Notes under the pieces: generated by a model
The model's database searches: none
Told to the model about the DNA's origin: nothing
The model's input: only the letters and a program-made list of their open reading frames with translations
Part shown: positions 1,216-26,802 of the stretch, one piece after another
How the letters are laid out: each line of letters begins with the position of its first letter
Numbering within the stretch: position 1 is the first letter of the stretch
Position numbers and translations under genes: made by a program
Assembly: GCA_030643545.1 (NCBI GenBank)
Contig: DAOWLE010000025.1
Location: 1 to 26,909, forward strand
DNA from: a bacterium
GTDB lineage: Bacteria; Patescibacteriota; Minisyncoccia; JAHIHE01; DAOWLE01
Reading direction: 5' to 3'
Length of the DNA stretch: 26,909 nt

Positions 1216-1221
1216 AATATT

Positions 1222-1556: not shown

Positions 1557-1570
1557 GAATATTAGATTTA

Positions 1571-11393: not shown

Positions 11394-11400
11394 AAAACAA

Positions 11401-11439
11401 TGATTTATGATTTAAGATTTATGATTTACGAATGATTTA
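11401..11439. repeat. gatttaYgattta repeat between the P2 start and the 3' end of the four-helix-bundle gene
   Basis: tgatttatgatttaagatttatgatttacgaatgattta lies 7 nt upstream of the P2 ATG and overlaps the last codons (FVNHKS*) of the four-helix-bundle gene. An inverted copy lies at 11823-11845 on the other side of that gene. Confidence 0.7.
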
Positions 11440-11798: not shown

Positions 11799-11822
11799 AA
11801 ATCGTCAATTCCTTAATCCTAT

Positions 11823-11845
11823 TCTTAAATCATAAATCGTAAATC
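11823..11845. repeat. inverted copy of the gatttaYgattta repeat, upstream of the four-helix-bundle gene
   Basis: tcttaaatcataaatcgtaaatc is the reverse complement of the repeat family found at 7042, 11401 and 22273. Together with 11401-11439 it brackets the four-helix-bundle gene as an inverted pair. Confidence 0.65.
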
Positions 11846-11847
11846 TT

Positions 11848-14026: not shown

Positions 14027-14027
14027 A

Positions 14028-14534
14028 TCAATAGTATCCTCCTTTTAAAACATAAGCTCCGCCAAATTCCAACCAACAGCCAAGATAATATCCGCAGCAT
14101 CCTTTTCCAGTGCAATCGCCGCCGATGTTTTCGTCGCAGTCCGGCTCATACCAATAATAATAAGCGGAATTATTAAAAGGATCTTTTGGAAGTATTCTAA
14201 TAATTTGATTGTCAGTAACTAATTTATCCCAAATTCCGCTGGTAACAGACCAATTATTTCCAGAGCAAGGACAAGTTCCGCATGTTCCCATACTGCTGTC
14301 GCATCCACCTTCTTCTGGATATTTTCCGGCTGCCGGATTGTCATAATAATAAATGTCTAATGCTTTTTGAATTTCTGCCAAATCAGTTTTCCGTACAGCG
14401 TCACGCGCTTTTTTCTGGGCATTGCCGACAGCAATAAAAACAACCATCGCCAGCATAGCAACAATTGTTATCACAAATAATACTTCTATAAGAGTAAAGC
14501 CAGTTTTTTTATTTGTATTTTTTTTGTTTTTCAT
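14028..14534 (-). CDS. prepilin-type (class III signal) Cys-rich pilin/pseudopilin
   Basis: 168 aa with KKTGFTLIEVLFVITIVAMLA. This is the G|FTLIE prepilin cleavage/methylation motif with Glu+5, then the hydrophobic alpha1 helix. The globular domain has 9 Cys and a Tyr-rich C-terminus. The gene abuts the pilD start by 1 nt. Confidence 0.8.
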   Translation of the reverse strand: MKNKKNTNKKTGFTLIEVLFVITIVAMLAMVVFIAVGNAQKKARDAVRKTDLAEIQKALDIYYYDNPAAGKYPEEGGCDSSMGTCGTCPCSGNNWSVTSGIWDKLVTDNQIIRILPKDPFNNSAYYYWYEPDCDENIGGDCTGKGCCGYYLGCWLEFGGAYVLKGGYY

Positions 14535-14565
14535 TTGGATTTTGAAATCTCCCCTTTTATTTAAT

Positions 14566-14595
14566 TAGCGGAGTAGGAATTTCCCCGCTCCGCTA
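14566..14595. other. GC-rich hairpin (tagcggag...ctccgcta) between the two pilin genes; possible terminator/attenuator
   Basis: 8-bp perfect stem with a 14-nt loop, downstream of pilin 14645..15079 on the minus strand. There is no clean U-run, so terminator function is uncertain. TATAAT-like sequences follow at about 14603-14612. Confidence 0.35.
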
Positions 14596-14644
14596 AATAA
14601 AAATATTATATAATCCTCGCGAGAATTTTAAATGAGAATTAAAT

Positions 14645-15079
14645 TTAATAACAAGCGCCATTAGAGCAAGTCCATGTTCCGGATTTAAGCGCTCCTGTCA
14701 GAGTATAACTAGTTACAGTTCCAGTATATTTGTAATTAGTAGCAGTTACTGGATGATCAGGCAAACGTTGGATATAAACCGTAGCGCCAGTAGAATCTTG
14801 TAATTTAAAACCGCTACAAATATTACCATTTGTAGCAGCACTGGCAATAAGACCATCAGCGCAAGTACCAACACCAGCTTCATATTCAGAATTATCCGCG
14901 TAATACATTTCCATTCCCAACATAATCTGGCTTAAATCTGATTTAACTTTCGCGTCGTTAGCTTTATTCCTCGCGTTATTTAAGGAAACCAAAACAATCG
15001 TCGCTAAAAGACCGATAATGGCGATAACAACCAAAAGCTCAATTAAAGTAAAACCTCGCTTATTTGTTTTTAACATCAT
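14645..15079 (-). CDS. pilA: type IV major pilin candidate (prepilin-type N-terminal domain)
   Basis: 144 aa with KRGFTLIELLVVIAIIGLLATIVLVSL, a canonical class III signal with G-1/F+1/E+5. Has a C-terminal disulfide loop (CSNGAC), small size and a Ser/Thr/Gly-rich domain typical of major pilins. It is the first gene after pilC. Confidence 0.8.
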   Translation of the reverse strand: MMLKTNKRGFTLIELLVVIAIIGLLATIVLVSLNNARNKANDAKVKSDLSQIMLGMEMYYADNSEYEAGVGTCADGLIASAATNGNICSGFKLQDSTGATVYIQRLPDHPVTATNYKYTGTVTSYTLTGALKSGTWTCSNGACY

Positions 15080-15107
15080 TTATTTCACCTCCCCTCGTTG
15101 AAAAATT

Positions 15108-15204
15108 AAAATCCAAAACAAAAAACAAAAAAATAAATTAAAAGTTAAAAGTTTTTGGTTTTTTGAATTTATTTTTGGCTTTTTTGTTTTTTGTTTTGGA
15201 TTTT
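15108..15204. repeat. perfect 26-bp A/T-rich inverted repeat with 46-nt spacer between the pilC stop and the pilin start
   Basis: aaaatccaaaacaaaaaacaaaaaaa at 15108-15133 is the exact reverse complement of tttttttgttttttgttttggatttt at 15180-15204. The repeat abuts the pilC stop codon at 15205. Confidence 0.8.
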
Positions 15205-16410
15205 CTACATTCCTCCCGCAATACCGTAAATCGGTAGAAGAATCGCCGAAACCATAACTCCCACTCCTATTCCCATCATAACAATTAAAACCGGTTCAAT
15301 CAATGTGGATAAATTATCAACAACATTATTTACTTCTCTTACGTAAAATCGCGCGATATTATCTAAGATTGAATCCAATTTTCCCGAGCGTTCACCGATA
15401 TTGATCATCTGAACAACTATCAGCGGAATTTCCGGACTCTCTCCTAAAACTTTGGCTATAGAGGTTCCGGACTTTACTTTTTCCGCTGTTTTAAAAATTA
15501 AATCTTTAAAAACTTCATTGCCGATAACCGATCCGGTGATTTGCAAAGAGCGGACAATCGGAACCCCGCCTTTGATTAAAGTGCTTAAATTTTCCGAAAA
15601 ACGGACTAAAGCAATTTTTCTAAAAAGTTCTCCCATTACCGGTAGTTTTAGTTTCATTTTATCCCAATTCATTTTTCCTTCCGGAGTATCAACATACCGT
15701 TTAGTTCCAATTCCCACTGTTATTCCAAAAACAATTAGAATCCATCCATAATATCTAAGAAAATGACTTGAAGCAATTAACATCTTAGTTGTGATTGGCA
15801 ATTCTTGTCCTGACTCTTCTATAATAGCGGTTAACTGAGGAATAACATAAACCATAACAATTATTCCAACGGCAAAAAACGCAAGCAAAATAAAAGCAGG
15901 GTAATACATTGCCCCTTTAATTTTATTTTCTAAATCATATTGTTTCTCTACGTGCTCAGCCAGATAAAGCAAAGATTCCTGAAGATTTCCGGAAACTTCT
16001 CCGGCTTTAATTAAATTTACATAAAATTCAGAAAATACTTTAGGATGTTTTGATAGAGAGTAAGAAAGCGATCGCCCTCCTTCTATATCATTGGCTATCT
16101 CAAAAATTTTTTCTCTAAAAAACGCATTGCTTGTCTGTTTATGCAATGTTTTCAGCGCTTCAAGCAAGGTAATTTTCGCTTCAATCAAAGTAGCCAATTG
16201 CCTTGAAAAAATCACCAAGTCCTTTGCCGGAACTTTTTGGAGAAACTTAATATTACGGAACAAAGCCGAAACTTCCACTATTGAAACAATAGAAATAACA
16301 ACTAATTTATGTGATTGAAGCGTTTCTATCGCCGCGGCTTCGTTTGAAGCTTCAACTGTGCCGCTTTGCATTTCGCCTTTTTCATTTTTTGCCTGATATT
16401 TAAATTTCAT
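15205..16410 (-). CDS. pilC: type IV pilus assembly platform protein PilC (GspF family)
   Basis: 401-aa polytopic membrane protein with two T2SSF-like cytoplasmic domains (…FSRQLATLIEAKITLLEAL…; …LSTLIKGGVPIVRSLQI…) and C-terminal GIGVGVMVSAILLPIYGIAGGM. It overlaps pilT by 4 nt. Confidence 0.85.
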   Translation of the reverse strand: MKFKYQAKNEKGEMQSGTVEASNEAAAIETLQSHKLVVISIVSIVEVSALFRNIKFLQKVPAKDLVIFSRQLATLIEAKITLLEALKTLHKQTSNAFFREKIFEIANDIEGGRSLSYSLSKHPKVFSEFYVNLIKAGEVSGNLQESLLYLAEHVEKQYDLENKIKGAMYYPAFILLAFFAVGIIVMVYVIPQLTAIIEESGQELPITTKMLIASSHFLRYYGWILIVFGITVGIGTKRYVDTPEGKMNWDKMKLKLPVMGELFRKIALVRFSENLSTLIKGGVPIVRSLQITGSVIGNEVFKDLIFKTAEKVKSGTSIAKVLGESPEIPLIVVQMINIGERSGKLDSILDNIARFYVREVNNVVDNLSTLIEPVLIVMMGIGVGVMVSAILLPIYGIAGGM

Positions 16411-17489
16411 TGTTTATTTTTCAAAAGCATTTTTAAATCCTTAGGATTAAGTGAGTAAAGCTCCGCATTTTGGCGAGATATCTCGCCTTTTTCAACAAGA
16501 TTTGCTAAAGATTTATTAAGAGGAAGCATTCCTTCTTCGGAACTTGTTTCAATAACCAAATCCAACTGGTGAGTTTTATTTTCCCTGATTAAATTTCTTA
16601 TTGCCGCGTTAGCAAGCAGAATTTCCGTTGCCGGAATTCTTCCACCGTCAACGCGGGGAACAAGCCGCTGAGAAACAATTCCCTGAAGGCTGCTGGCTAA
16701 TTGCGCTCTAATTTGAGATTGTTGATTAGCCGGAAAACTATCAATAATTCTGTCTATTGTCTGAGCGGCATTATTAGTATGAAGAGTGGCAAAAACCAAA
16801 TGACCTGTCTCCGCGGCAGTCACCGCTGTTGATATTGTTTCCGGATCTCTCATTTCTCCAACCATAATCACATTAGCGTCTTCCCTAAAAACAGATCTCA
16901 AAGCAACATGAAAAGAACGGGAATCGTGATAAATTTCCCTTTGAGAAATAATGCATCTGTCTTGAGTAAAAACATATTCAATCGGATCTTCAATAGTAAT
17001 TATACAATCATTTCGGTTATGATTAATTTCATCTATTAAAGCGGCTAAAGATGTTGATTTTCCATGGCCGGTTGGTCCGACCATCAGAACAAAACCTTGT
17101 TTAAGCTTGGTAAATTTGTGAATAATAGGCGGCAAATTTAATTCTTCAACAGTTCTAATTTCCGAAGGAATTAATCTTAAAGAAGCTCCGACATATCCTT
17201 TTTGGCGGAAAATATTAACTCTAAATCTTGCTCTTTCTTCAAAATTATAAGAAAGGTCAATTTCTTTGTCTTTTAAAAACTGGTCTTTTTGTTTTTCATC
17301 AAGCAGAGCAAAGCATAATTCCTCGGCGTGTCCCGGAGTTAAAATTTCTTTGTTTGTTAAAGGAATTAATTTGCCATCAATTCTTAAAATAGGATATCGC
17401 GCTATTGAAATATGAAGATCTGAAGCGCCTTCTTTTGCTGTCATTTCCAAAAGTTCGTTTAATTCTTTTTTAATTTCTAATGAATCCAT
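16407..17489 (-). CDS. pilT: type IV pilus retraction ATPase PilT
   Basis: 360 aa with a Walker A box GPTGHGKST, the Asp box ITIEDPIEY, Walker B MVGEMRD, the His box HLVFATLHTNNA and the PilT-type AIRNLIRE motif. Confidence 0.9.
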   Translation of the reverse strand: MDSLEIKKELNELLEMTAKEGASDLHISIARYPILRIDGKLIPLTNKEILTPGHAEELCFALLDEKQKDQFLKDKEIDLSYNFEERARFRVNIFRQKGYVGASLRLIPSEIRTVEELNLPPIIHKFTKLKQGFVLMVGPTGHGKSTSLAALIDEINHNRNDCIITIEDPIEYVFTQDRCIISQREIYHDSRSFHVALRSVFREDANVIMVGEMRDPETISTAVTAAETGHLVFATLHTNNAAQTIDRIIDSFPANQQSQIRAQLASSLQGIVSQRLVPRVDGGRIPATEILLANAAIRNLIRENKTHQLDLVIETSSEEGMLPLNKSLANLVEKGEISRQNAELYSLNPKDLKMLLKNKQ

Positions 17490-17495
17490 ATAATA

Positions 17496-17612
17496 AATTT
17501 AAATATTAAATATCAAAATGTAAAATGACAATGTAAAATTAAAAATTAAAAATTAAAAATTTTTCAATTTTGATTTGTTATTTTGATTTTTGATTTTTGC
17601 ATTTTAATTTTT
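17496..17612. repeat. imperfect palindromic intergenic element, copy B
   Basis: aaatatcaaaatgtaaaatgacaatgtaaaatt...aattttgatttgttattttgatttttgattttt. Fills the whole spacer between the pilT start and the stop of the upstream small ORF. Confidence 0.7.
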
Positions 17613-17936
17613 TTAGTACGGCAAAAATGGATTTGGTCTTCCAGTTTGGCCCGTTTTTACCGGCAAATCTCCGTGGCTGCGCAGATCTTTGAACTGCGTA
17701 CTTTCTAAAACTTTTAAATCCAATTCCGTGGAAACCAATCCTTCGCTTGGCAAAGACTCGTTCTTTCCATCTAAATAAGGAAAATTTTCATTGTTTGTTT
17801 TAGAAATTGTTTCAGCTGGTTGATTAGATGTTTTCGGCCCTGAAAAATTCCAAATAAGAACTATTGCCATTATTAAAAGGCAAGTTACTAAAATAATCGC
17901 TAAAATTTTTTGTTTTTTTTCTTCTTGAGAAGCCAT
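17613..17936 (-). CDS. small membrane protein (hypothetical), embedded in pilus operon
   Basis: 107 aa with an N-terminal TM (ILAIILVTCLLIMAIVLIW), then a Pro/Ser/Thr-containing soluble tail. It is flanked on both sides by copies of the palindromic element. No homolog recognised. Confidence 0.5.
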   Translation of the reverse strand: MASQEEKKQKILAIILVTCLLIMAIVLIWNFSGPKTSNQPAETISKTNNENFPYLDGKNESLPSEGLVSTELDLKVLESTQFKDLRSHGDLPVKTGQTGRPNPFLPY

Positions 17937-17939
17937 AAT

Positions 17940-18140
17940 ACAAATTTAAAATTTAAATATCAAAATGTAAAATGACAGTGTAAAATTCAAAATTGACTAA
18001 TGTTAAAATGGTTTTTAAGTTTACCCTGTTAAATAAAATCTTTGATTTTCTTTCACCAAAGGCGAAAGACTTAACAGGGTAAATTCCATTTTAACATTTT
18101 GATTTGTCATTTTGCATTTTGATATTTGCATTTTGATTTT
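17940..18140. repeat. imperfect palindromic intergenic element, copy C, with nested hairpin insertion
   Basis: Same outer cores as copies A, B and D, plus the ttgactaatgttaaaatggttttt block shared exactly with copy A. It contains the nested perfect palindromes tgttaaaatgg/ccattttaaca (18001-18011 with 18086-18096) and tttaccctgttaa/ttaacagggtaaa (18020-18032 with 18071-18083). Confidence 0.7.
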
Positions 18141-18141
18141 T

Positions 18142-19884
18142 CTAGTCTTTCGTCGCTTTAATCACTTCATTGATTGTCGTCGTTCCTTTCAAAACTTTTA
18201 ATACTCCATCTTGAAGCATTGACAGCATTTTCTGCCGCCGCGCTTCTTCTTTAATCGCGCTTTCAGTTAAATTTTCAATAACAACTTTTTCCAAACCAGG
18301 AGTCATCGAAAAAACTTCAAAAATAGCCATTCTGCCTTTCACTCCTTGGTTATCGCAATACTTGCATCCTTTGCCCTGATAAATTTTATAGGGCTCTTTT
18401 ATTGACAAACTGTCCTTTTGTTCTTGAGAAAGTTTATTTACTTCCCGTTCAATTAAATTTTTTACGCCCCTGTCCAGTTCAATTTCCTTGCGGCAGTACT
18501 TGCAAATTCTTCTAACTAATCTTTGAGCAATAATTAAATTAAGGGAAGAAGTAATTAAGAAAGGATCAATTCCCATGTCAATTAATCGCGGAATAACGCC
18601 AACCGCGTCATTGGTATGAAGAGTTGAAAGAACAATATGCCCGGTCAGCGCGGCATGAACAGCCAACTCAGCTGTTTCTTTATCCCTGATTTCCCCGACC
18701 ATAATAATATCCGGATCCTGCCGTAAAATTGACCTTAAACCAGAAGCGAAAGAATAACCTATTTCCGGCTTTACCTGGCTTTGATTTACTCCTTCAATAT
18801 CATATTCAATCGGATCTTCCAAAGTAATAATATTCACTCCTTCTTGATTAAGAATTGATAAAAGAGCGTAAAGAGTTGTTGATTTCCCAGAACCAGTCGG
18901 ACCGGTTATCAAAATCATTCCGTAAGGTTTTTTAATGCTTTCAATGGTGAGCTTATGGGCATTGCCTTCTAATCCTAATTCATGCAAGCTTCTTAAACCA
19001 ATTGATTTATCAAGAATTCTTAAAGCCGCTTTTTCGCCATTTAAAGTCGGTAGAGTAGAAACCCTAAAATCTAATCCTTTTCCGTCAATATCCATATGAA
19101 ATCTTCCATCTTGCGGCTTTCGGCTTTCGTCAATTTTGAGATTAGTAAGAATTTTTATTCGCGATATGACGCCTGAACAAACTTGCTTGGGCAAAGTTAA
19201 ACTTGAATGAAGCACTCCGTCAATCCTAAAACGAACTCTTAAATCAGTTTCTGTCGGTTCAATATGAATATCGCTTGCTCCGCCTTCATAAGCATGCCTT
19301 ATAATAATGTCAACTATTTTGCTTACCGGCGTTTTCTCAACTAATCGTTCAACTTTTTCCACCTTTTCTTTTTTTGAAACTGGTTTTTTGCTTTTTAAAT
19401 CTTTTTTTATTCCTTTCAGCGCTTCGCTGACTTCTAAATCCAAAACTCTGTATTGCCTTAATGTTTCTTCAAAAGAAGAAGATGAAGTGATAAAAATTCT
19501 TGTTTTAAGATTATGCCTTAAAGCAATAAATTTAAGAGCTTCTAATGATCTTATGTCTTTTGGATCAAGCATAGCAATATCTATTTGTTTGCCATGTTTA
19601 AAAAAAGGAACAAAACGATAATGCACAGCGGCCTCTTCAGGAATTTCTTTTAAAACATTGGAGGGAATTTTTTCTCCTCTTAAATCAACATAAGGTATTT
19701 TTAAAAATTCTGCTTTTGTCTGGATATAATCTTCTTCTTCAATAATTTTATTTCTAAAAACAAACTCATCAAGCGTTTGTCCGGCTTCGTTTGCTTTTTG
19801 TTTATATGATTCAATTTTTTGAGATTCAATTAAACCTTTTTCTAAAAGAAGATCAATAATTTGTTTGGACTTTTGAACAACCAT
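18142..19884 (-). CDS. pilB: type IV pilus assembly ATPase PilB (GspE family)
   Basis: 580 aa with an N-terminal GSPII_E_N-like domain. Has Walker A GPTGSGKSTT, the Asp box ITLEDPIEY, Walker B MVGEIRD, the His box HIVLSTLHTNDA and the tetracysteine Zn motif CKYC...CKYC. Confidence 0.9.
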   Translation of the reverse strand: MVVQKSKQIIDLLLEKGLIESQKIESYKQKANEAGQTLDEFVFRNKIIEEEDYIQTKAEFLKIPYVDLRGEKIPSNVLKEIPEEAAVHYRFVPFFKHGKQIDIAMLDPKDIRSLEALKFIALRHNLKTRIFITSSSSFEETLRQYRVLDLEVSEALKGIKKDLKSKKPVSKKEKVEKVERLVEKTPVSKIVDIIIRHAYEGGASDIHIEPTETDLRVRFRIDGVLHSSLTLPKQVCSGVISRIKILTNLKIDESRKPQDGRFHMDIDGKGLDFRVSTLPTLNGEKAALRILDKSIGLRSLHELGLEGNAHKLTIESIKKPYGMILITGPTGSGKSTTLYALLSILNQEGVNIITLEDPIEYDIEGVNQSQVKPEIGYSFASGLRSILRQDPDIIMVGEIRDKETAELAVHAALTGHIVLSTLHTNDAVGVIPRLIDMGIDPFLITSSLNLIIAQRLVRRICKYCRKEIELDRGVKNLIEREVNKLSQEQKDSLSIKEPYKIYQGKGCKYCDNQGVKGRMAIFEVFSMTPGLEKVVIENLTESAIKEEARRQKMLSMLQDGVLKVLKGTTTINEVIKATKD

Positions 19885-19885
19885 T

Positions 19886-20494
19886 TTATTGATAATAGAC
19901 TTTTAACCTAATACTGTAAGAAAAATTATCAGACACTTCTTCCTCTTCAGAGGAACCGGAAGAGCTGGAAAAATTAATGGATGTTATATCCATAATTCTA
20001 ATATTGTTTTCTAAACTTCTAAGATAATTTTTAAAATTTTCATAACTGCCGGTTAAATTTATATCAATAGAGACAGATCTAGTTTGTTCAATAATATTTT
20101 GCTGGTCTGCTGTTTCTAAAGAAGACGCTGCATTATTTTCAGAAGTTGTTTTGTTCTGCGCGCTCTGCTGTATTTTGCTAAAATTTGATGATTCAAATAT
20201 CATTCCATTTTCCGAAGCTAAAGCTTCAAGCTGAACTAAAACATTAGGAATTTCCGCTTTATTCGGCAAAGCGTAAAAAACTTTATTTACCCGGCCTTCT
20301 ATATCTTCATATTGATTAACTAATTTCTCAATATCAAAAACTAATTTCTGTTTTTTTTCAAGAGTATTTTCTTTTGTTTCTATTTTCTGCGCAAGATTTT
20401 TTATTTCACCATAGGTTGGCTGAACAAACCATAATAATGCCGCAATAATGCCAATCATCGCAATGGGCAAAATAAGAATTTCTACAAATTTCAT
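19886..20494 (-). CDS. pilO: type IV pilus biogenesis protein PilO-like
   Basis: 202-aa bitopic protein (N-terminal TM, coiled coil, periplasmic domain). It sits directly downstream of pilN and 1 nt upstream of pilB, in canonical pilMNO order. Confidence 0.65.
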   Translation of the reverse strand: MKFVEILILPIAMIGIIAALLWFVQPTYGEIKNLAQKIETKENTLEKKQKLVFDIEKLVNQYEDIEGRVNKVFYALPNKAEIPNVLVQLEALASENGMIFESSNFSKIQQSAQNKTTSENNAASSLETADQQNIIEQTRSVSIDINLTGSYENFKNYLRSLENNIRIMDITSINFSSSSGSSEEEEVSDNFSYSIRLKVYYQ

Positions 20495-20535
20495 AATATT
20501 TTTGTTAAAAATTTAAAAGTTATATTTCTCTGTCA

Positions 20536-21078
20536 TTATTTTTTATATTCAAACATTTCCTGTTTCAAGAAAAGAGAAAGATCAAAACCGATTCCGCCAT
20601 CAACACCTATGCTCGCTGAAGAAAAATCAACTTTACTAATTTCTTCAGCTTCTCTAAAAGCAACTACTTGTTTAGCTAAACTGCTAAAACTAATTGCTTT
20701 TCCCTTAAGCTGAATTTTTTTGCTGGGAACATCCCCGTCAAAACTTTCAAAGCTTACGGTCGGAACAGTATTTTTTTCAATCAGGTCAAAAACATTTGAA
20801 TAATAAATATGATCATTTAACATTCTTTTAAGATTATTTAAATGTTTTTGAAAACTGATTACTTCAGTATCTAATTCCTGACTAATTTTTTCATTTATCT
20901 GATCAATTTCGTTATCTAAATCAGAAACTTTATTGGACAAAGTTTTTTCGTAGAAAAAAAGTCCAGCGCAAATAATCGCTGTGATAATAATTAAAACAAT
21001 CGGAATAATAACCAATTTTTTTGAAGTTTTTTCTTTTTTTTGCCTAAAACCTTCAGGCACTAAATTAATTGTAGACAC
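20536..21078 (-). CDS. pilN: type IV pilus biogenesis protein PilN-like
   Basis: 180-aa bitopic protein with the conserved N-terminal INL(V/L)P motif (MSTINLVPEGF), then a TM, a coiled coil and a periplasmic domain. It apparently starts with GTG at 21078. Confidence 0.7.
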   Translation of the reverse strand: MSTINLVPEGFRQKKEKTSKKLVIIPIVLIIITAIICAGLFFYEKTLSNKVSDLDNEIDQINEKISQELDTEVISFQKHLNNLKRMLNDHIYYSNVFDLIEKNTVPTVSFESFDGDVPSKKIQLKGKAISFSSLAKQVVAFREAEEISKVDFSSASIGVDGGIGFDLSLFLKQEMFEYKK

Positions 21079-21081
21079 GAT

Positions 21082-21186
21082 AGTAAATTTAAAAATTAAA
21101 TATCAAAATGTAAAATGACAATGTAAAATTTAAAATTTTTTAATTTTGATTTGTCATTTTGATTTTTGATTTTTAATCTTTGATTT
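21082..21186. repeat. imperfect palindromic intergenic element, copy D
   Basis: aaatatcaaaatgtaaaatgacaatgtaaaattt...aattttgatttgtcattttgatttttgattttt. Fills the pilM-pilN spacer. Confidence 0.7.
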
Positions 21187-22269
21187 TTATACTGTTCCTC
21201 TTGTTGCCGAGCCGACAGATGAAGAAAAAAACGGAGATAATTCTTTTAATGCCGGGTTTAAAATTTCCGGATAAATCACATTAAGCCAAGGATTAGCTAA
21301 AGATACCGGAATATCAAAATTTTCAATAAAATATTCCATTAATCCGGGAAGATTTGCTGAACCGCCGCTCATTATTATCATTTTTGGCTTCTTATTAGAA
21401 CGTTGATAATATAATTCAAAAACTCTTTGTATTTCTTCAATGATTGAATTGATAAGCGGTAACATTAATTCTGAAATTTGTTTTTCAGCATCGTCCGCTT
21501 TTATTCCAATGTCTTTTTTAAGAACTTCAGCTCGTTTAAAATTAAGATTAAGTCCGTCAGCAATTACTTTAGTTAATTCATTGCCGCTCATTTCAATAGT
21601 TCTGCTCATCACCACAAACCCTCCTTCAACAACAATAATATTAGACGAACTTATTCCAATATCAACAATTACCATTGGTTCTTTTTCTTTGCCTACTAAC
21701 GCTCTTGACAAAGAAAAGGATTCTGACTCTAAAGCGACTAATTCAACTTTGGCTATCTCGGCAATCTTGGCATATTTTTGGATTAATTCTTTGGAGACAG
21801 CAACTAAAATTATTTCCAATAAATGTGAATCAGAATTTTCTTTTAATGAAAAACTTCCTGAATCTTTTTTGAGAATTTCCCAGCTTAAAATTACTTCTTC
21901 AATCGGAACAGGAATATATTTTTTCGCCTCAATCGGAATAGCTCTTTCAGCTTCTTCATCGGACATTTTTGGCATTTTTATTAAAACAGAAAAGGTTGAA
22001 GAAGCTGGAGTGGAAATAATCGCTCTTCTGGTCGTTGCTTTGCATTCTTTTAAAACCTTTTTCAAAAGCATTGCTATTGTTTTGTCAGAATAATTTATTT
22101 TTCTATTTTCAACTTCAGTTTCTTGGATAAAATCTTTAACTTTTAAATATCCGTAAGTTTCTAATTTTAATCTTTTACTCTCTTGAGTTAATTGTACCAC
22201 CTTTATGTTTTTTGCGCTAATATCAATTCCTAAACATCTATTCGATTTTTTAAAAAAAGAAAAATTCAT
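21187..22269 (-). CDS. pilM: type IV pilus assembly protein PilM (actin-like ATPase fold)
   Basis: 360 aa with LGIDISAKNIKVVQL and IVDIGISSSNIIVVEGG, the actin/FtsA-like phosphate motifs typical of PilM. It is the first gene of the pilMNO-B set. Confidence 0.85.
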   Translation of the reverse strand: MNFSFFKKSNRCLGIDISAKNIKVVQLTQESKRLKLETYGYLKVKDFIQETEVENRKINYSDKTIAMLLKKVLKECKATTRRAIISTPASSTFSVLIKMPKMSDEEAERAIPIEAKKYIPVPIEEVILSWEILKKDSGSFSLKENSDSHLLEIILVAVSKELIQKYAKIAEIAKVELVALESESFSLSRALVGKEKEPMVIVDIGISSSNIIVVEGGFVVMSRTIEMSGNELTKVIADGLNLNFKRAEVLKKDIGIKADDAEKQISELMLPLINSIIEEIQRVFELYYQRSNKKPKMIIMSGGSANLPGLMEYFIENFDIPVSLANPWLNVIYPEILNPALKELSPFFSSSVGSATRGTV

Positions 22270-22272
22270 ATT

Positions 22273-22290
22273 AAAATGATTTATGATTTA
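22273..22290. repeat. gatttaYgattta repeat immediately upstream of the pilM start
   Basis: aaatgatttatgatttac lies 4 nt upstream of the pilM ATG and overlaps the stop of the giant upstream gene. Confidence 0.6.
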
Positions 22291-25200
22291 CTATTCCTTC
22301 TTCGGTTTTACTTCTTTCCACGCTGGCATTGGTTGAGGACAGAGACATTCTCTTGTTTCTCCGGGGGCAATGCATTCACCGGGACAAAGGGCGTCATCTG
22401 TTCCGTCGCATATTTCACAAAGTCCGCTGGTATTCGGGCATTGGATATTATTATCTCCGCAGACAGTCGGACTGGCAACAGTAATTGAAACTGTGTCAGT
22501 GCTAAATCCTCCGTAAGAATCAGTGACTGTTAAATCAATGTGATAAACTCCGATAGTGTCTGGGGTGAATGCAGGTGTTGAAGAAAAAGGATCGGAAATT
22601 AATGTTCCCATTCCAAATTCATAAAGATTTTCTATTTCATCTTCTGATAAAGCTTTATTGTAAATTCTGACTTCATCTATGGAGCCGGAAAATATTTCTC
22701 CGATTATTAAATTATCTGTGTTTGTGTTTATTGCTTCTGAAAAATTTGTTTGCGCGGATTCTTCTCCATTTATGTATAAAATTTGTTTATCTCTATTATA
22801 AGTTAAAACATAATGATGCCATTCATCTAATTGCGGGACTGGCACAGACGCAGTGAGCCTGTTTCCGTTAAGAAATCCATACACTTGCGTACCATCGCCG
22901 TTTGTTTGCAATGAATACGCTCCCTGTTTTTGCAAAATTATTTGATTGGACGATTCTATTTGTTCACTCCCAGGCGCGCCAGCGCTTGGTTCTGGCGATG
23001 CGTATTTACAAACTATCACATTATCTATGTATGCTTCTCCACCATTGCCTGATGCTCCTGCACTAAAGTATATTGTATTGAGAGTTCCTGAATATGAGCC
23101 GGAATAGGTATTAAAATCATTTGATTTCAATACATCATTGACATAATAATCAAATGTTTTGTTTGTTTGGTCCGCTGTTATTTTTATGTCATACCAACTA
23201 TCTTTTGGCATATCGTAAGCAGAAGGAGTTCCTCCATTAAAAACACGAAGTTCATTTCCATTCCAAGACTTCCAGTCTGCGTGAGCAAGAGTATTTGTTC
23301 CATCAGTAAGGCTGGGAAAGCTATAAATACCCGAAGCTGCAGCTGCTTTCGGTCGAGCTTTCATAGTCATCATAAAATTATCTGAACATCCAATATTATC
23401 AGTATACACTTTCGCTCTTTGGTTAGCATAACCAAGAATATGGAGTGTTTCTGATACAATTTCTACTACTGAACCAGCTTCTTTGTCTGATAAATCCCAT
23501 TTTGATAAATCACCACTAAAATCATCAAAAAATTCAAAGGTATTTGTTCCACTACTCACAGAAGTTGCGCTTGAATTGCCATAGTACATATAAATAGCTG
23601 TTCCCGTAGAAGGAATTGACGGAATTTTGACCCAAATCTGCGTTGAAGCAGTATTGCACCCGCTTTCTAACCAAAAAGGAATTTGCGTTGTTTTATCTGA
23701 ATCCTTAATTCTAATATCTGAACAATCTGCTTTCATTTTCCCTTGAGATATTAATTCCGCTGTATCAATCGTTAAAAGCATTTGATAATCAGATAAATCA
23801 GACGATGAACCAGTGACATTTATTGGCTTATAATAGGGCCACAACGCAGGAGGGGCTACTGATTCCACTCTTGCCCATGCTTCTATGCTAATATTATCCT
23901 GGATATCCAATGAATTTGAATCAGAAATCTCAATATAATCGTCTACCCCATCAAAACTTAAAGCGTTTCCAACTTTGCCGGTTGTCCAAATTGGCGAAGC
24001 AGGTTTTAAAGTTCCGTCGTTATTATTTGCTCCAGAAGTATCATAAACAACATTTCCTAAATTCTCGTCAAAATGCCATCGACTAATCAGATTAGAAGGA
24101 GTATAATCCCAGCGATAACTAATCGTATCTCCCTCATCATGACTTCCGCTGCCGTCAAGATTGACTGAATTTCCGATAACAACAAACCGATCTAATCCAG
24201 CGTCAGCAACAGGCAATTGATTCCAAGTGGTTGCTGAAATAGAATTACTCCAATCAGAATCATAGCCATTTTTGGTTGCCATAACTTTATAAGAATAAGT
24301 TGTATTTGCGTTTAATCCGCTTCCAGATAAATCTTCTGTACTAGTTCCTGCGCCTTCCTCAAACGGAAGGTGTAACTCTAAACCAGTATCATTGCTGAAT
24401 GTGTGATTGTAGTGCTCTGCGACTTCCGTACCAGAAAGCGCGCGGTTGTATATCCGGACTTCGTCTATTTTGCCGTCAAAATCACCGTCTTGATTTACTT
24501 TTAAATTACTGCCCGAGGTTTCAATTTCATAAGAAGCTAGTTCTGAAAGGGTTTTGGTCTTCTTCAATGCCCCATTTATATACATCTTTAATTGTTTTGT
24601 TGAAGAACTATATGTTGCTAAAAGATGAGTCCATTCTGTCCCTACTGGATCTCCCCCCCAATCAGCAACCGCATGCCAATCTCCGCCAACACGCAGATAA
24701 AAATGCGCTTCATCTGCCCATGACCGAGATACATCTAAGAAGAAAGCATTTTCTTTGCGAATTATCATCTTCTGGTTATCCGCTCCCGAAGAATCTCTTT
24801 TTACCCACGCTTCAACGGTGATTTCGTCAGTGATGTTCAAACTTGCATCATTCCCGCAGTCAACATAATCATCCACTCCGTCAAATTGCAAAGCATTTCC
24901 AATTTTGCCGGTTGTCCAAACTGCATCATTATGAATAATTCCATTGTTATGATTTCCTCCTCTGTCAATTAAACCTGTATCAGGGCCGTGATAAATCCAA
25001 TCGTCTTTATCAAAACTCCAAAGATGATAAGTATCTGCCCCCCTATCAGACCAGGAAAGATTAATTGTAGAACTTGAACTAGCATTTCCATTTAACGCTG
25101 GAGCGCGAGGAATGATTTCCCAGTTTAAATCAAACCACCGTCCGCCGCAGCTGCCCCAGGCGTCATCACCGCAAGCGTCAACTGCTTTAAATTTTATTGT

Positions 25201-26802
25201 GTTCCATCCGGTGATAAATTTGTTTGTGACATCAGCCCAATCGCCATAAGCGCAACACACAAAAGGAATGTTTGCGTTACTGCTATTTATCCAAACTGTC
25301 GAAGAATCATCAACTCCGCATCGCACTTTAATATTATAATCATTTATGTCATCTATGTAAATTTTCTTTTCGCCCCATAAATCAGAAGTGCCTCCATCGC
25401 CGCCGCAACTTTCTGGTTCCCAATAAGAAGGAATGCCGTTGCATCCATCAACTGTTGCTACTCCTTCTTTAACTAAGCATCCATCATGAATATTCCAGGT
25501 GCAATAAACATCATCAATCGCGTCGCCCATTTCAGAAATACTGTTGTCTTCGGCGTCATCAGCAGAACAATTTAAAGAAAGGCAGGAACGGCAAGTGTAA
25601 TCAACACAGGAAAGAGGAGAACAGCAGGGCATTGATGAACAATCTCCGGATTCCAAAGCGCATAACATCTCTTCTTCCGTGTCTATCCCAAAACTCGCAA
25701 CCGGTTCCGGTGACGCATATTTTCTTACATACAAATCATCTATCCACAACTTCGCCTCAGCTGACAAAGATGGATTTTTGCATACTCTACATTCTTTACA
25801 ATCTCCTCCATCACAATCATGACCAGCACCACAGCCACCAATGCAACAGGGATCATGCCATGATAGTTCGTCACAATAATAATTGATTTCATTATATCCC
25901 ACAGGACAGATTGGAGCAATTACACCGGCGTCACAGTTATTTCCGTGACAATAACAATACTCAAAAGGCGCACCAGGCTCCCACCCTGTACATCTTGTTA
26001 CTGTATTTTCGCATCCTTTAGCGTAGGCGTAAAGTTTCAGTTTTAAATTATTCCCTGAAATTGTATAGCTCTTATCTGTAAAATCAGAATGTGCAGAAGA
26101 ATCCAATCCTGATTCTCCGCCGTCCTTTATAAGTTTCAATTCGTGCTTATAATCACACCTCCAATGTTGTTTATAACCTTCGCTTTTAATTTTTAAATGA
26201 GCTTTGAAATCTCCAGAACCGATTACATCTGATATTAAATCAGAAGAAACATTGCCAGGCGCTGTTTTATAAGCGCGGACATATCCGGTGCCTGTGGTGG
26301 AATGTTCAAAACCGGAGCCAGCCCATTTGCTGCTGGACGGCTCAAACTCATCAAAAAAAACAAAAGTAGCTTCTCCATTACTTACAGAATTCGCAGTTGA
26401 ATTGCCATAATACATATAAACCGTTGTTCCAGAAGAAGGAATTGAAGGAACTTTCACCCAGAATTCGGCAGTTGATGACGGTACGTATGATGCTCTCCAA
26501 TGGCTAAGCAAAGTTATATTATCAGATAACACAAATCGAATATCAGAAAAATCACTTTTCATTTTACCGCTTGCAAAGTCAACGGTAACTTTAACCTGAT
26601 AATCTGTTAAGCTCGAAGTAGAGCCGGTGATATTCACAGTATTTCTATAACTCCAAGAATAATCAAACCATTCGGAATCCGCATATGCAGGATCTGATTT
26701 AATTAATAAATTAAAACAAAGCCCGAAAAACAAAACAACTGTCAAAATAAATATTGTTGTTCTAATTGTAGTTTTAATCTTCATTGCTTTTTTTGTTTTC
26801 AT
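22291..26802 (-). CDS. giant secreted Cys-rich multidomain protein (2x DUF2341-like, 3x LamG/concanavalin-like, PKD-like modules); putative pilus-associated adhesin
   Basis: 1503 aa with a signal peptide/TM (IFILTVVLFFGLCF). Duplicated DUF2341-like modules are (SWSYRNTVNITGSTSSLTDYQVKV...FWVKVPSIPSSGTTVYMYYGNSTA) and (YYKPINVTGSSSDLSDYQMLL...IWVKIPSIPSTGTAIYMYYGNSSA). Three LamG-like modules share the G(K)xGNALxFDGVDDYxx...DEVRIYN pattern. PKD-like segments (ADAGLDRFVVIGNSVNLDGSGSHD; IDLTVTDSYGGFSTDTVSITV) and several Cys-dense stretches are present. The gene ends 22 nt before pilM on the same strand. Confidence 0.75.
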   Translation of the reverse strand: MKTKKAMKIKTTIRTTIFILTVVLFFGLCFNLLIKSDPAYADSEWFDYSWSYRNTVNITGSTSSLTDYQVKVTVDFASGKMKSDFSDIRFVLSDNITLLSHWRASYVPSSTAEFWVKVPSIPSSGTTVYMYYGNSTANSVSNGEATFVFFDEFEPSSSKWAGSGFEHSTTGTGYVRAYKTAPGNVSSDLISDVIGSGDFKAHLKIKSEGYKQHWRCDYKHELKLIKDGGESGLDSSAHSDFTDKSYTISGNNLKLKLYAYAKGCENTVTRCTGWEPGAPFEYCYCHGNNCDAGVIAPICPVGYNEINYYCDELSWHDPCCIGGCGAGHDCDGGDCKECRVCKNPSLSAEAKLWIDDLYVRKYASPEPVASFGIDTEEEMLCALESGDCSSMPCCSPLSCVDYTCRSCLSLNCSADDAEDNSISEMGDAIDDVYCTWNIHDGCLVKEGVATVDGCNGIPSYWEPESCGGDGGTSDLWGEKKIYIDDINDYNIKVRCGVDDSSTVWINSSNANIPFVCCAYGDWADVTNKFITGWNTIKFKAVDACGDDAWGSCGGRWFDLNWEIIPRAPALNGNASSSSTINLSWSDRGADTYHLWSFDKDDWIYHGPDTGLIDRGGNHNNGIIHNDAVWTTGKIGNALQFDGVDDYVDCGNDASLNITDEITVEAWVKRDSSGADNQKMIIRKENAFFLDVSRSWADEAHFYLRVGGDWHAVADWGGDPVGTEWTHLLATYSSSTKQLKMYINGALKKTKTLSELASYEIETSGSNLKVNQDGDFDGKIDEVRIYNRALSGTEVAEHYNHTFSNDTGLELHLPFEEGAGTSTEDLSGSGLNANTTYSYKVMATKNGYDSDWSNSISATTWNQLPVADAGLDRFVVIGNSVNLDGSGSHDEGDTISYRWDYTPSNLISRWHFDENLGNVVYDTSGANNNDGTLKPASPIWTTGKVGNALSFDGVDDYIEISDSNSLDIQDNISIEAWARVESVAPPALWPYYKPINVTGSSSDLSDYQMLLTIDTAELISQGKMKADCSDIRIKDSDKTTQIPFWLESGCNTASTQIWVKIPSIPSTGTAIYMYYGNSSATSVSSGTNTFEFFDDFSGDLSKWDLSDKEAGSVVEIVSETLHILGYANQRAKVYTDNIGCSDNFMMTMKARPKAAAASGIYSFPSLTDGTNTLAHADWKSWNGNELRVFNGGTPSAYDMPKDSWYDIKITADQTNKTFDYYVNDVLKSNDFNTYSGSYSGTLNTIYFSAGASGNGGEAYIDNVIVCKYASPEPSAGAPGSEQIESSNQIILQKQGAYSLQTNGDGTQVYGFLNGNRLTASVPVPQLDEWHHYVLTYNRDKQILYINGEESAQTNFSEAINTNTDNLIIGEIFSGSIDEVRIYNKALSEDEIENLYEFGMGTLISDPFSSTPAFTPDTIGVYHIDLTVTDSYGGFSTDTVSITVASPTVCGDNNIQCPNTSGLCEICDGTDDALCPGECIAPGETRECLCPQPMPAWKEVKPKKE

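Follow-up and report, generated by a model that had tools for sequence, protein, structure and literature searches.

Introduction

PilY1 carries a Sec signal and joins a variable N-terminal part to a conserved C-terminal part. In archaea, DUF2341 genes are located inside the Epd type IV pilus (T4P) loci, and a role as tip adhesins has been suggested for their products (PMC4858521). One of these genes, MMJJ_08210 of M. maripaludis, was hit by transposon insertions recovered in a loss-of-transformation screen (PMC10133366). Links between DUF2341 and T4P and giant adhesins of the Patescibacteria (CPR) are already published, and DUF2341 proteins have been suggested to be adhesins associated with T4P (PMC4858521; PMC11809585). 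TM7x PilX1 and PilX2 are lectin-like, non-prepilin candidates for T4P adhesins, of which PilX2 is required for efficient host binding (PMC11623550), and epibiotic growth cannot proceed without T4P and several adhesins (PMC10633639). Furthermore, adhesins have been described in which ligand-binding domains project from split companion domains (Graham et al. 2024, as cited in PMC13059738).

Gene, Secretion and Pilus Gene Cluster

The window (the whole stretch of 26,909 nucleotides that was analysed) has as its largest open reading frame, as an earlier note on this DNA had stated, a gene for a 1503-aa protein with a predicted mass of ~160 kDa (Table 1), and the identical sequence is present in a public protein collection. 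A hydropathy scan identified a Sec-type signal peptide with a basic N-region, a hydrophobic segment (aa 11-37) and a cleavage site between AYA and DS. This peptide is 85-88% identical in the relatives P0003 and P0011, despite their unrelated heads. A prepilin leader was ruled out for aa 1-42 (no N_methyl match, Pfam), and a lipobox reading was rejected given that the Cys is not kept in P0001. The 1503-aa sequence contains no LPXTG, in agreement with the earlier note that it lacks a cell-wall sorting motif, and no C-terminal TM segment was found in it by sequence scan. The Cys-dense stretches and the nucleotide-level internal duplication described earlier were both recovered: the 46 Cys include clusters of 14 (aa 264-341), 17 (aa 381-552) and 8 (aa 1448-1488), and there are two repeats (23518-23634 against 26344-26460, 80% over 117 nt; 23930-23993 against 24860-24923, 81%).

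The gene leads a co-oriented string in the order pilM, (pilN), pilO, pilB, a 107-aa ORF, pilT, pilC, two pilins and pilD, an order shared with contigs L002, L014, L015 and L016. Pfam accounts for PilM, PilO, PilB, PilT, PilC, the pilins and PilD of the string proposed before (PilM_2, 1.7e-43; PilB as T2SSE, 5e-133, plus MshEN; PilC as T2SSF; two N_methyl pilins; PilD as Peptidase_A24), and the 180-aa 'PilN' is named from position only. The spacer to pilM had been given as 22 nt and is actually 21 nt; a scan of it revealed no terminator-like hairpin. No PilY1/PilC domain was found by Pfam within the window, as previously claimed, the 1503-aa protein gave no match to the beta-propeller PF05567, and the window's pil operon contains no minor-pilin set.

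Domain Architecture

The domain scan proposed in the earlier note recovered DUF2341, Laminin_G_3 and PKD by Pfam. The predicted duplication of DUF2341 followed by F(V/E)FFD(E/D)F is present (two copies, 2.4e-49; 51% identity between a and b), with FVFFDEF at aa 147 and FEFFDDF at aa 1089, each following a DUF2341, and the PKD-like segment proved to be one PKD domain. However, the three LamG modules reported before are two Laminin_G_3 domains, since ALxFDGVDDY and DEVRIYN occur exactly twice each; the miscount probably arose because an insertion of ~300 aa splits the second LamG.

Table 1. Features of the adhesin gene and the adjoining pilus cluster (aa, residues of the 1503-aa protein).
Feature	aa	Position	Strand	Evidence
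Whole gene, 1503-aa secreted multidomain protein		22291..26802	-	ORF list and translation; ATG start
Sec-type signal peptide	1-42	26677..26802	-	Hydropathy scan
DUF2341 copy a (head)	45-160	26323..26670	-	PF10102, 3.6e-24 on fragment
Jelly-roll module Xa (putative)	161-370	25693..26322	-	Both ends similar to Xb; Cys map
Constant Cys-rich core domain	376-565	25108..25677	-	Alignment of relatives
Split fn3, N-terminal half	566-612	24967..25107	-	Splicing; contiguous in P0001/P0003/P0011
LamG domain 1, within fn3	613-800	24403..24966	-	Laminin_G_3, 8.8e-28, full length
Split fn3, C-terminal half	823-860	24223..24336	-	Splicing; DCC fn3, E=0.003
Split PKD, N-terminal half	861-904	24091..24222	-	PKD_4 1-41 of 85, native protein
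LamG domain 2, N-terminal half (ALSFDGVDDY)	905-985	23848..24090	-	Splicing; resembles LamG1 N-half
DUF2341 copy b, inside LamG2 together with Xb	986-1104	23491..23847	-	PF10102, 4.8e-28
Xb, ConA-like lectin/glucanase-fold jelly roll	1105-1275	22978..23490	-	
LamG domain 2, C-terminal half (DEVRIYNKALS)	1281-1398	22609..22962	-	Internal comparison, splicing
Split PKD, C-terminal half	1399-1445	22468..22608	-	Pfam, splicing
Constant 8-Cys tail module	1446-1490	22333..22467	-	Cys map
C-terminal motif MPAWKEVKP	1492-1500	22303..22329	-	Regex scan
Spacer, stop codon to pilM ATG, 21 nt		22270..22290	-	Sequence; terminator scan
Type IV pilus genes, co-oriented, downstream		13124..22269	-	Pfam, NCBIfam

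Module Xb runs from FEFFDDF to AYIDNVIVCKYASPEP, and the preceding DUF2341 copy b was modelled at an AF2 pLDDT of ~90. Module Xa begins with FVFFDEF, ends with LWIDDLYVRKYASPEP and carries the 14-Cys cluster as an insert; it had no Pfam match, and its jelly-roll fold would follow from its resemblance to Xb. The core domain has no Pfam model and is rare, since 1.84 billion representatives yielded only 34 clusters; its resemblance to the GH2 N-terminal sugar-binding beta-sandwich is weak and non-significant (E=0.15). The 8-Cys tail is kept in P0001-3, P0011, P0125 and L014-L016.

Spliced constructs and natural homologues without exactly these inserts support a predicted nested layout, fn3[LamG1] and PKD[LamG2[DUF2341+ConA-like jelly roll]]. 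When flanking halves were joined in silico and submitted to profile search, the PKD halves (aa 861-904 + 1400-1445) matched PKD_4 over 1-85/85 (1e-11) and K319L-like_PKD over 1-84/84 (5.7e-14), and the LamG2 halves (aa 905-985 + 1281-1400) matched Laminin_G_3 over 1-150/151 (3.2e-26). The fn3 halves (aa 566-612 + 823-862) matched fn3 over 11-83 of 84 at E=7e-4, which is below threshold. P0001 lacks exactly aa ~606-827, where LamG1 is missing, and aa ~983-1258, and the DUF2341b+Xb insert is missing from P0001, P0002 and P0125. The LamG2 C-terminal half shares 56-61% identity with the LamG that is intact in P0001 and P0125, while the PKD C-terminal half is 85% identical to that of P0003, whose PKD, like that of P0011, is unbroken. 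The AF2 model of the nested region is of low confidence (pLDDT 66; N-terminal halves <50).

Conservation and Diversification of the Locus

All named relatives of the protein are Patescibacteria, and together they form a small family with a constant signal peptide, rare Cys-rich domain, fn3, PKD and Cys tail, and with heads that vary (DUF2341, GLUG or Gly-rich). The earlier note had made its proposal depend on conserved linkage to pil genes, and in all seven informative contigs (the window, L001, L002, L006, L014, L015 and L016) the gene directly upstream of pilM encodes a family member and has identical orientation. This adjacency is kept whatever the head type, even in L002, where PilM identity is down to 74%. 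Four of the seven contigs have a spacer of 21-24 nt without a terminator-like site; in L001, L002 and L006 it measures 113-226 nt, and co-transcription may therefore not be a conserved feature.

The window and L006 have PilM proteins that are 92% identical, yet the upstream protein's head differs and its core is only 48-56% identical; in general, strains with 90-98% identical pilM carry differing heads and inserts. Furthermore, the neighbour upstream of the adhesin gene differs in L006, and three contigs end inside the adhesin gene.

The pil linkage is lineage-specific and confined to a narrow lineage. DUF2341/LamG giants at four other CPR loci (Paceibacterota, Roizmanbacteria, WWE3) are not beside pil genes, and such giants elsewhere in CPR are sometimes in tandem arrays. 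P0123 and P0124, distant relatives through the core domain, are either unlinked to pil genes or separated from them by 3.8 kb. The place directly before pilM is taken, in distant CPR clusters, by a GspK/PilX-like tip pseudopilin.

The C-terminal motif, generalised as [LM]PxW[KR]E[VI]xP and located 3 residues before the stop, is common to other Patescibacteria surface proteins. Of the 164 retrieved proteins, 14 carry it at their very C-terminal end, and it recurs at more loci (chance expectation <0.01, regex), on several proteins per genome, including proteins without pil neighbours. Relatives that share the core domain have dockerin modules or a hydrophobic anchor at this end instead.

Function and Alternative Explanations

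The protein is best described as an adhesin of lectin type that diversifies fast and is coupled to the pilus at the genomic level. A constant scaffold of signal peptide, Cys-rich beta-rich domain, fn3, PKD, disulfide-rich tail and MPAWKEVKP bears variable carbohydrate-binding-type modules, namely an N-terminal DUF2341+jelly-roll head and, in loops of the fn3/PKD stalk, LamG and DUF2341+jelly roll. A Sec-secreted multi-lectin surface adhesin that leads the T4P cluster of an uncultivated, ultrasmall Patescibacteria bacterium and takes part in pilus-linked attachment is a somewhat favoured explanation. On its parts, a lectin-type surface adhesin is probable from its domains, functional coupling to the pilus is slightly favoured, and a physical position at the pilus tip is unlikely. 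The large, presumably secreted sugar-binding protein is a good candidate for a host-attachment factor, because it always lies directly before the pil genes and its binding domains are swapped between near-identical strains. Of the attachment analogue at the pilus tip envisaged in the earlier note, the secreted, non-enzymatic character and the lineage-wide pilM linkage stand; the tip placement is unlikely, and the protein has no prepilin signal.

A secreted polysaccharide-degrading enzyme with PL7/GH16-like jelly rolls, attacking the host envelope, is highly improbable. The AF2 model and structure comparison place the DUF2341-associated module in a ConA-like lectin/CBM fold, and non-catalytic lectin domains and CBMs match it as well as enzymes do. 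None of the GH16/PL7 catalytic signatures (ExDxxE, R(S/T)EL, Q(I/V)H, YFKAG) is present in any jelly roll, and the jelly-roll interior is the module's least conserved part (mean column conservation 0.27). Together, the missing catalytic motifs and the hypervariable interior support a protein that is predicted to be secreted and non-enzymatic. A hypervariable surface protein with no part in pilus function, for instance an antigen or phage decoy associated with the envelope or S-layer and encoded at a recombination-prone site by pilM, is also improbable. The locus is indeed a hot spot, with variable heads and inserts, a changed neighbour in L006 and broken assemblies; related giants at other CPR loci stand apart from pil genes, at times in tandem arrays, and the best PDB sequence match of LamG1 is an S-layer domain protein (4qvs, E=4.5e-6). 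However, a purely accidental neighbour would not be expected to persist to 74% PilM identity with all head types, and the constant orientation and the very short, terminator-free spacer of four contigs also argue against it.

A genuine pilus-tip adhesin, functionally analogous to PilY1, whose constant tail and MPxWKEVxP dock pilins or the priming complex, seems doubtful, although it has several points in its favour. The gene opens the pil cluster, its spacer of 21 nt is free of terminators and its adjacency to pilM is invariant in the lineage; the window has no PilY1/PilC homologue, and the variable N-terminus, constant C-terminus and Sec rather than prepilin signal are as in PilY1. Moreover, archaeal Epd-locus proteins, one of them found in the transformation screen, are the proposed tip adhesins, and a tip pseudopilin occupies the same slot in distant CPR clusters. 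Against this, the DUF2341/LamG giants of the four other CPR loci are not pil-linked, the C-terminal motif recurs within a genome on several proteins and also sits on proteins far from pil genes, the dockerin or membrane-anchor C-termini of core-domain relatives are typical of envelope display, and both the beta-propeller and a nearby minor-pilin set are missing. A globular load of 160 kDa would also need assembly outside the membrane, for which no mechanism is evident. General surface docking is favoured over pilus docking because of the motif on non-pil proteins and the dockerin or anchor C-termini.

With pilus-linked attachment, the variable modules would bind surface glycans on a host or partner cell, and the constant C-terminal end would dock the protein to the cell envelope or pilus. 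Adhesin and pilus may then act together: the adhesin may be carried by the pilus, or it may lock on once the pilus has reached out and retracted.

Comparison with Known Systems

PilY1/PilC, the tip adhesins of type IVa pili in Pseudomonas, Myxococcus and Neisseria, are likewise large non-pilins with a Sec signal, a pil-cluster location and a proposed role in adhesion. However, the present protein lacks the beta-propeller (PF05567), a vWA domain and adjacent minor-pilin partner genes, and its tip location is only a candidate one. TM7x PilX1/PilX2 share the Patescibacteria origin, a T4P locus, lectin-like accessory domains (jelly roll or propeller) and the absence of a canonical PilD-type signal. 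Compared by description, in which they are minor pilins, the present protein is far larger, multi-lectin and nested, and its gene precedes pilM instead of lying with the pilin genes.

In split-domain RTX-type adhesins, ligand-binding domains project from a beta-sandwich stalk, according to the citation of Graham et al. (2024, Proteins 92:933) in PMC13059738. The parallels, as far as that citation describes the design, are LamG in fn3 and LamG[DUF2341-jelly roll] in PKD; set against the same description, the present protein is from CPR and Sec-dependent, without RTX repeats (Pfam), a T1SS signal or a long tandem Ig stalk. To our knowledge, these adhesins have not been described as doubly nested. 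The DUF2341/FhaB/ConA giants of Patescibacteria (PMC11809585; PMC13059738) resemble the present protein in domain repertoire and proposed adhesion or host-interaction role, and were reported without pilM operon linkage, strain-level head swapping or the C-terminal motif.

Finally, the Methanococcus Epd DUF2341 proteins (MJ1470 / arCOG03508) are similarly large, secreted and encoded within or beside a T4P cluster. The present protein is bacterial and similar to them at the level of the DUF2341 domain only, to which it adds LamG, PKD, fn3, a private Cys-rich domain, the C-terminal motif and nesting.

Gene Position and Downstream Pilus Genes

The gene encoding the 1503-aa giant protein (hereafter the giant) is the largest open reading frame (ORF) of the window, as the earlier note had observed, and lies just upstream of a co-oriented string of type IV pilus (T4P) genes beginning with pilM. 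The distance to pilM had been put at 22 nt; the closeness holds, with the TAG stop and the pilM ATG separated by 21 nt. A scan for terminator-like hairpins between the giant-family gene and pilM found none in the window or in the retrieved contigs L002 and L006. The coupling of the giant to the T4P is genomic and probably also transcriptional. The small ORF between pilB and pilT is conserved at the equivalent position in L002 (55% identity), L014, L015 and L016, and may for that reason be an unrecognised pilus component.

On the same strand after pilD are three T4SS_pilin/TrbC-like genes, a trio also found in L014, with a gene of the 23S rRNA-intervening-sequence family (four-helix bundle) among them. 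Elsewhere in the window, neighbouring HEPN and nucleotidyltransferase genes have overlapping ORFs in a typical layout of what we take to be a HEPN/MNT toxin-antitoxin module, and the GC-richer left end holds ordinary genes. The ribosomal protein S2 of the window has named relatives only among Patescibacteria (Portnoybacteria, Pacebacteria, 'Patescibacteria group'), with at most ~69% identity outside its own clade. This placement is consistent with the three PF18895 genes, the low GC and PilM, whose sole GTDB relative is a Patescibacteria MAG.

Features of the window and of retrieved contigs, with positions and supporting matches
Feature	Contig	Position	Strand	Details
GC-richer left end	window	1-1644	-	
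secY, 5' part	window	1-1233	-	runs off window
tRNA-Tyr	window	1472-1556		
tRNA-Thr	window	1572-1644		
HEPN and nucleotidyltransferase genes	window	4558-5270	-	131 aa and 117 aa
Three T4SS_pilin/TrbC-like genes	window	9953-13083	-	PF18895; 411, 291, 152 aa
23S rRNA-intervening-sequence-family gene	window	11412-11798		
pilD	window		co-oriented	Pfam A24 peptidase
Two pilin genes	window		co-oriented	Pfam N_methyl; 14645-15079 and 14028-14534
pilC	window		co-oriented	Pfam T2SSF
pilT	window		co-oriented	Pfam
ORF between pilB and pilT	window	17613-17936	-	107 aa; no family match
pilB	window		co-oriented	Pfam T2SSE 5e-133 and MshEN
pilO	window		co-oriented	Pfam PilO
PilN-position gene	window			180 aa; no Pfam family; placed by position
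pilM	window		co-oriented	first downstream gene; Pfam PilM_2, 1.7e-43
Spacer between giant gene and pilM	window	22270-22290		
Giant gene	window	22291-26802	-	ATG start
C-terminal motif of giant	window	22303-22329	-	
Nucleotide repeat, two copies	window	23518-23634; 26344-26460		
ORF with internal motif	L001	362-874		
C-terminal motif	L001	641		
C-terminal motif	L007	2104; 6391		includes a second protein
C-terminal motif	L014	2-115		
Extended P0002 ORF	L002	551-3871		ATG at 551; 1106 aa
Fic-like protein gene	L006	2-646		HPFxDGNGR
Partial gene upstream of pilM	L014	1-139		
Partial gene upstream of pilM	L015	1-139		
Partial gene upstream of pilM	L016	1-598		
Pilin-like protein with LamG	L012	1-640		Paceibacterota
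Pilin-like protein with LamG	L013	1-707		Paceibacterota
Array of three giant DUF2341/LamG genes	L019	10001-25184		WWE3; 1727, 1686, >2065 aa

Domain Content and Nested Layout

The N-terminus of the giant comprises a hydrophobic segment (aa 11-37) followed by AYA|DS. The Pfam scan proposed in the earlier note recovered Laminin_G_3 (1.1e-49) and DUF2341 (2.4e-49), each in two stretches, together with PKD_4 and K319L-like PKD. Most of what had been read from the sequence by eye was borne out. The DUF2341 module is duplicated (PF10102, 166 bits with a gathering cutoff of 23.4, covering aa 84-160 and 1026-1104) and followed by the described F(V/E)FFD(E/D)F segments (FVFFDEF at aa 147, FEFFDDF at aa 1089), the PKD models (PF18911 / PF22352) exceed the gathering score, and the Cys-dense stretches amount to 46 Cys, grouped at aa 264-341, 381-552 and 1448-1488. 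A cell-wall sorting motif is absent, given that an LPXTG regular expression found no match and that aa 11-37 form the sole hydrophobic segment. The duplication suspected at nucleotide level was recovered at 80% identity over 117 nt, and a second nucleotide repeat joins the starts of the two Laminin_G_3 domains (LamG1 and LamG2). The count of three LamG modules failed: there are two, with the signatures ALxFDGVDDY (aa 637 and 947) and DEVRIYN (aa 780 and 1376) each occurring exactly twice.

Self-comparison of the giant showed that aa 50-206 resemble aa 988-1150 (DUF2341 and the beginning of the next module) and that aa 353-369 resemble aa 1258-1274 (the module end ...IDxxxVxKYASPEP). Furthermore, the N-terminal half of LamG1 (aa 579-671) resembles aa 893-981 and its C-terminal half (aa 719-798) resembles aa 1323-1394; LamG2 is therefore interrupted by ~300 residues. 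LamG1 matches Laminin_G_3 (PF13385) over its full length (97.8 bits, profile positions 1-151), and LamG2 does so only after in silico removal of the insert (92.7 bits), the spliced aa 905-985 + 1281-1400 covering positions 1-150 of 151 in a single stretch (3.2e-26). The native PKD scores 35.7 bits (cutoff 27) over the first half of the profile only, and splicing aa 860-904 to 1400-1445 raises this to 45-52 bits over the full profile length (PKD_4 1-85/85, 1e-11; K319L-like_PKD 1-84/84, 5.7e-14). Spliced aa 562-610 + 823-862 gave a sub-threshold match to fn3 (PF00041) at positions 11-83 of 84 (7e-4; 20.2 bits, cutoff 25); the DCC fn3 domain in the PDB gave a match at E=0.003, and a precomputed fn3 annotation is present for the homologous protein P0002.

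The predicted architecture is SP-DUF2341a-Xa(14-Cys insert)-Cys-rich core-fn3[LamG1]-PKD[LamG2[DUF2341b-Xb]]-8-Cys tail-MPAWKEVKP, where Xa and Xb are the jelly rolls following each DUF2341 copy and brackets denote insertion. The putative insert borders are confirmed by natural homologues. P0001 (991 aa) has neither insert, its alignment covering aa 7-619, 817-982 and 1259-1501 of the giant, PKD is uninterrupted in P0003 and P0011, and the DNA of the window and L001 is 84-89% identical on the flanks of two clean gaps, which are LamG1 and DUF2341b-Xb. AlphaFold2 modelling of aa 860-1445 used the best workable alignment (A4), as MAFFT often misaligned fragments across the nested domains, and reached a pLDDT of 66.5, with the N-terminal halves of PKD and LamG2 below 50; the case for nesting is therefore carried only by sequence and comparative evidence. 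Other DUF2341 proteins, including P0054, P0030 and P0034, have the reverse nesting, with LamG inside DUF2341 after the first hairpin, or alternatively with LamG standing in for the jelly roll that otherwise separates DUF2341 from the ...VRKYASPEP strand. Insertion of one domain into another seems to be common in the DUF2341 superfamily.

DUF2341 and its ~170-aa jelly roll form a conserved bipartite unit, in which the jelly roll begins F-x-F-F-D-D-F and ends D-x-x-x-V-R-K-Y-x-S-x-E-P; among the retrieved homologues, 85 domain hits span >70% of aa 985-1280. The AlphaFold2 model of the unit (21-sequence alignment) is all-beta and two-lobed (pLDDT 84.4, pTM 0.85), and one module of the giant has a lectin/CBM fold. 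Within the unit, invariant residues are confined to DUF2341 and to the first and last jelly-roll strands, and mean column conservation is 0.27 in the jelly-roll interior versus 0.65 in DUF2341. The jelly roll resembles PL7 and GH16 in fold only, and the catalytic signatures of PL7 (RxEL, QxH, YFKAG) and GH16 (ExDxxE) were found in none of the jelly rolls. A PL7/GH16-type enzyme was rejected in view of the missing motifs and the conservation pattern. Given its poorly conserved interior and missing signatures, the jelly roll fits a diversifying binding module.

Exchangeable Heads Upstream of pilM

The exact sequence of the giant is present in the protein database, and full-length relatives are few. 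The giant, P0001-P0003, P0011 and P0125 form a family with a common signal peptide (85-88% identical in close relatives), Cys-rich core, predicted fn3, PKD and a Cys tail ending [LM]PxWKEVxP, encoded directly upstream of pilM in the informative contigs; the giant has all of these features. The heads differ: those of the giant, P0001 and P0002 are DUF2341, that of P0003 consists of GLUG repeats and that of P0011 is Gly-rich and beta-helix-like. The P0002 gene call is N-terminally truncated; the extended ORF gains a signal peptide and holds a scaffold gap (run of X). No Pfam model was found for the Cys-rich core, whose profile matched only 34 clusters among 1.84 billion representatives. In a PDB profile search, its best match was a GH2 sugar-binding domain, which was weak (E=0.15).

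A family member adjoins pilM upstream in all seven informative contigs (the window, L001, L002, L006, L014, L015 and L016). Thus, the linkage to pil genes that the earlier note had asked about is conserved within the lineage; beyond it, the distant core relatives P0123 and P0124 and the DUF2341/LamG giants at four other CPR loci are not adjacent to pilM. Four of the seven contigs have a spacer of 21-24 nt; in the remaining three it measures 113, 172 and 226 nt. In L001, the pilM start downstream of the family gene is 97.7% identical. L014, L015 and L016 encode PilM at least 90% identical to that of the window, and all three contigs start inside the upstream gene, which ends ...C-x-C-x-x-x-MPEWKEVKPKME and stop, 24 nt before pilM. 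The three contigs are independent, one being 193 kb long. Their starts suggest that assemblies break at the strain-variable gene upstream of pilM.

PilM identity with the window is 92% in L006 and 74% in L002. Because the L006 family protein has a different head and a core only 48-56% identical despite its closely related PilM, the locus diversifies by whole-domain exchange, insertion and deletion far faster than its neighbours, with heads swapped at strain level; this probably explains the assembly breaks. Upstream of the adhesin, L006 encodes a Fic-like protein, versus a 137-145-aa membrane protein in the window, L001 and L002, and thus the upstream boundary of the locus is also variable.

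Relation to the Pilus in Other Lineages

P0123, a distant core relative, is encoded 3.8 kb upstream of a HisKA-RR-PilB-PilC cluster, with RNase Y and HU genes in between, and no pil neighbours were found at the locus of P0124, another such relative. No pil genes were found beside the DUF2341/LamG giants of two Paceibacterota contigs, a Roizmanbacteria MAG and a WWE3 MAG; the WWE3 genes in L019 form a tandem array with no pil genes nearby. A PilM scan of genome and metagenome contigs returned only 30%-identical loci with another gene order (L003 and L004, distant Patescibacteria), which serve as an outgroup only. In these, four pilin-like genes, one encoding a 469-aa GspK/PilX-like protein, lie upstream of pilM, and a giant is absent from that position.

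The giant itself has no significant similarity to the pilin-like genes of L003 and L004, the GspK/PilX-like one included. A prepilin signal was not detected by Pfam or NCBIfam (PF07963, TIGR02532; no N_methyl match), and the N-terminus has no G|F-x-x-x-E. Identity with the TafC fimbrial protein (NF052521) is likewise poorly matched, at 82.5 bits against a cutoff of 410 with only the LamG part aligning, and a lipoprotein was rejected given that 'GLC' is not a lipobox and its Cys is Gly in P0001. Separately, L012 and L013 carry genes for pilin-like proteins in which LamG is joined to an N_methyl prepilin motif (weak match); such proteins, encoded ~9 kb from DUF2341 giants, would be modular lectin pilins.

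A Shared C-Terminal Motif

The giant ends ...CLCPQPMPAWKEVKPKKE. Among the 164 retrieved proteins, 14 carry the pattern [LMIV]PxW[KRE]E[VIML]xP in their final ~12 residues (chance expectation <0.01 occurrences), and many Patescibacteria surface proteins that otherwise differ have [LM]PxW[KR]E[VI]xP 0-4 residues ahead of the stop. Carriers include unrelated-looking Paceibacterota DUF2341 giants (P0017, P0021), PKD proteins (P0123, P0126, P0127) and P0096, P0099, P0100 and P0110, and further copies lie in L001, L007 and L014. In one L001 ORF the motif is internal and precedes a 68-aa Cys-rich extension. No hydrophobic or transmembrane segment follows the C-terminal motif, which is therefore unlike LPXTG or PEP/PGF-CTERM signals, and no description of it was found in NCBIfam or in a literature search for known sorting signals.

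Among core-domain relatives, P0321 and P0322 end in dockerin type I modules (above cutoff; P0319 just below), and P0336 and P0340 end in a PGF tripeptide, a hydrophobic helix and a basic tail. The latter tails resemble PGF-CTERM, for which NCBIfam gave no confirmation. Judged by its position, the motif occupies the place held by surface-docking modules in these relatives. It is conceivable, though we consider it unlikely, that the motif (after a PKD or Cys-knot tail) is an undescribed Patescibacteria docking or sorting signal that plugs swappable heads onto a common receptor, either the T4P tip or an envelope scaffold, in the manner of phage receptor-binding-protein swapping or cohesin-dockerin display. 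If so, the pilus operon of this lineage would carry its own exchangeable host-range cassette, and the motif would suggest an as yet unknown route of surface display in Patescibacteria.

Interpretation and Comparison with Known Systems

The best-supported reading is that the giant serves attachment to a partner cell as a Sec-secreted, lectin-type surface adhesin whose heads can be exchanged. Its variable modules would bind glycans, the constant C-terminus would dock it to the surface, and it would cooperate with the pilus in partner-cell attachment. The earlier interpretation, a lectin-type adhesin beside pil genes, is partly supported; its placement at the pilus tip found no direct support. 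The giant could sit at the tip, a claim somewhat weakened by the distribution of the C-terminal motif.

Patescibacteria account for a sizeable part of bacterial diversity, and a host-attached life is assumed for most of them. To our knowledge, host recognition in this group is largely unknown beyond a few cultured Saccharibacteria. The locus offers a testable host-recognition candidate, with one gene fixed ahead of the pilus genes and lectin modules swapped between near-identical strains. Should the variable heads determine host range, host specificity could be read from metagenomes via this locus.

Large DUF2341 proteins encoded in Methanococcus Epd pilus loci have been proposed as tip adhesins (Makarova et al., 2016; PMC4858521), and the same study asserts that PilY1 contains DUF2341. 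A screen for loss of natural transformation yielded transposon insertions in one Epd-locus DUF2341 gene (PMC10133366). In TM7x, the lectin-like PilX1 and PilX2, which have no PilD-type signals, are adhesin candidates (PMC11623550), and epibiotic growth of Southlakia requires T4P and several adhesins (PMC10633639). A passage of PMC13059738 (its reference 39) describes an adhesin design with ligand-binding domains projecting from split companion domains.

Like RTX split-domain adhesins, the giant appears to have ligand-binding-type domains inserted in split companion domains, and its nested layout carries the 'split-domain' design beyond them; it has no RTX nonapeptide repeats (no HemolysinCabind or related Pfam match) and no T1SS C-terminal signal. 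Unlike sortase substrates, it has no LPXTG-like motif, and unlike PilY1/PilC tip adhesins, whose absence the earlier note had rightly pointed out, it has no C-terminal beta-propeller (PF05567; no Pfam match in the giant at E<=0.1). This is not a new kind of system, given that DUF2341-T4P links and split-domain adhesins are already known. What is new is the conserved place heading a bacterial T4P operon combined with domain-cassette hypervariability, together with the doubly nested domains and the undescribed C-terminal motif.
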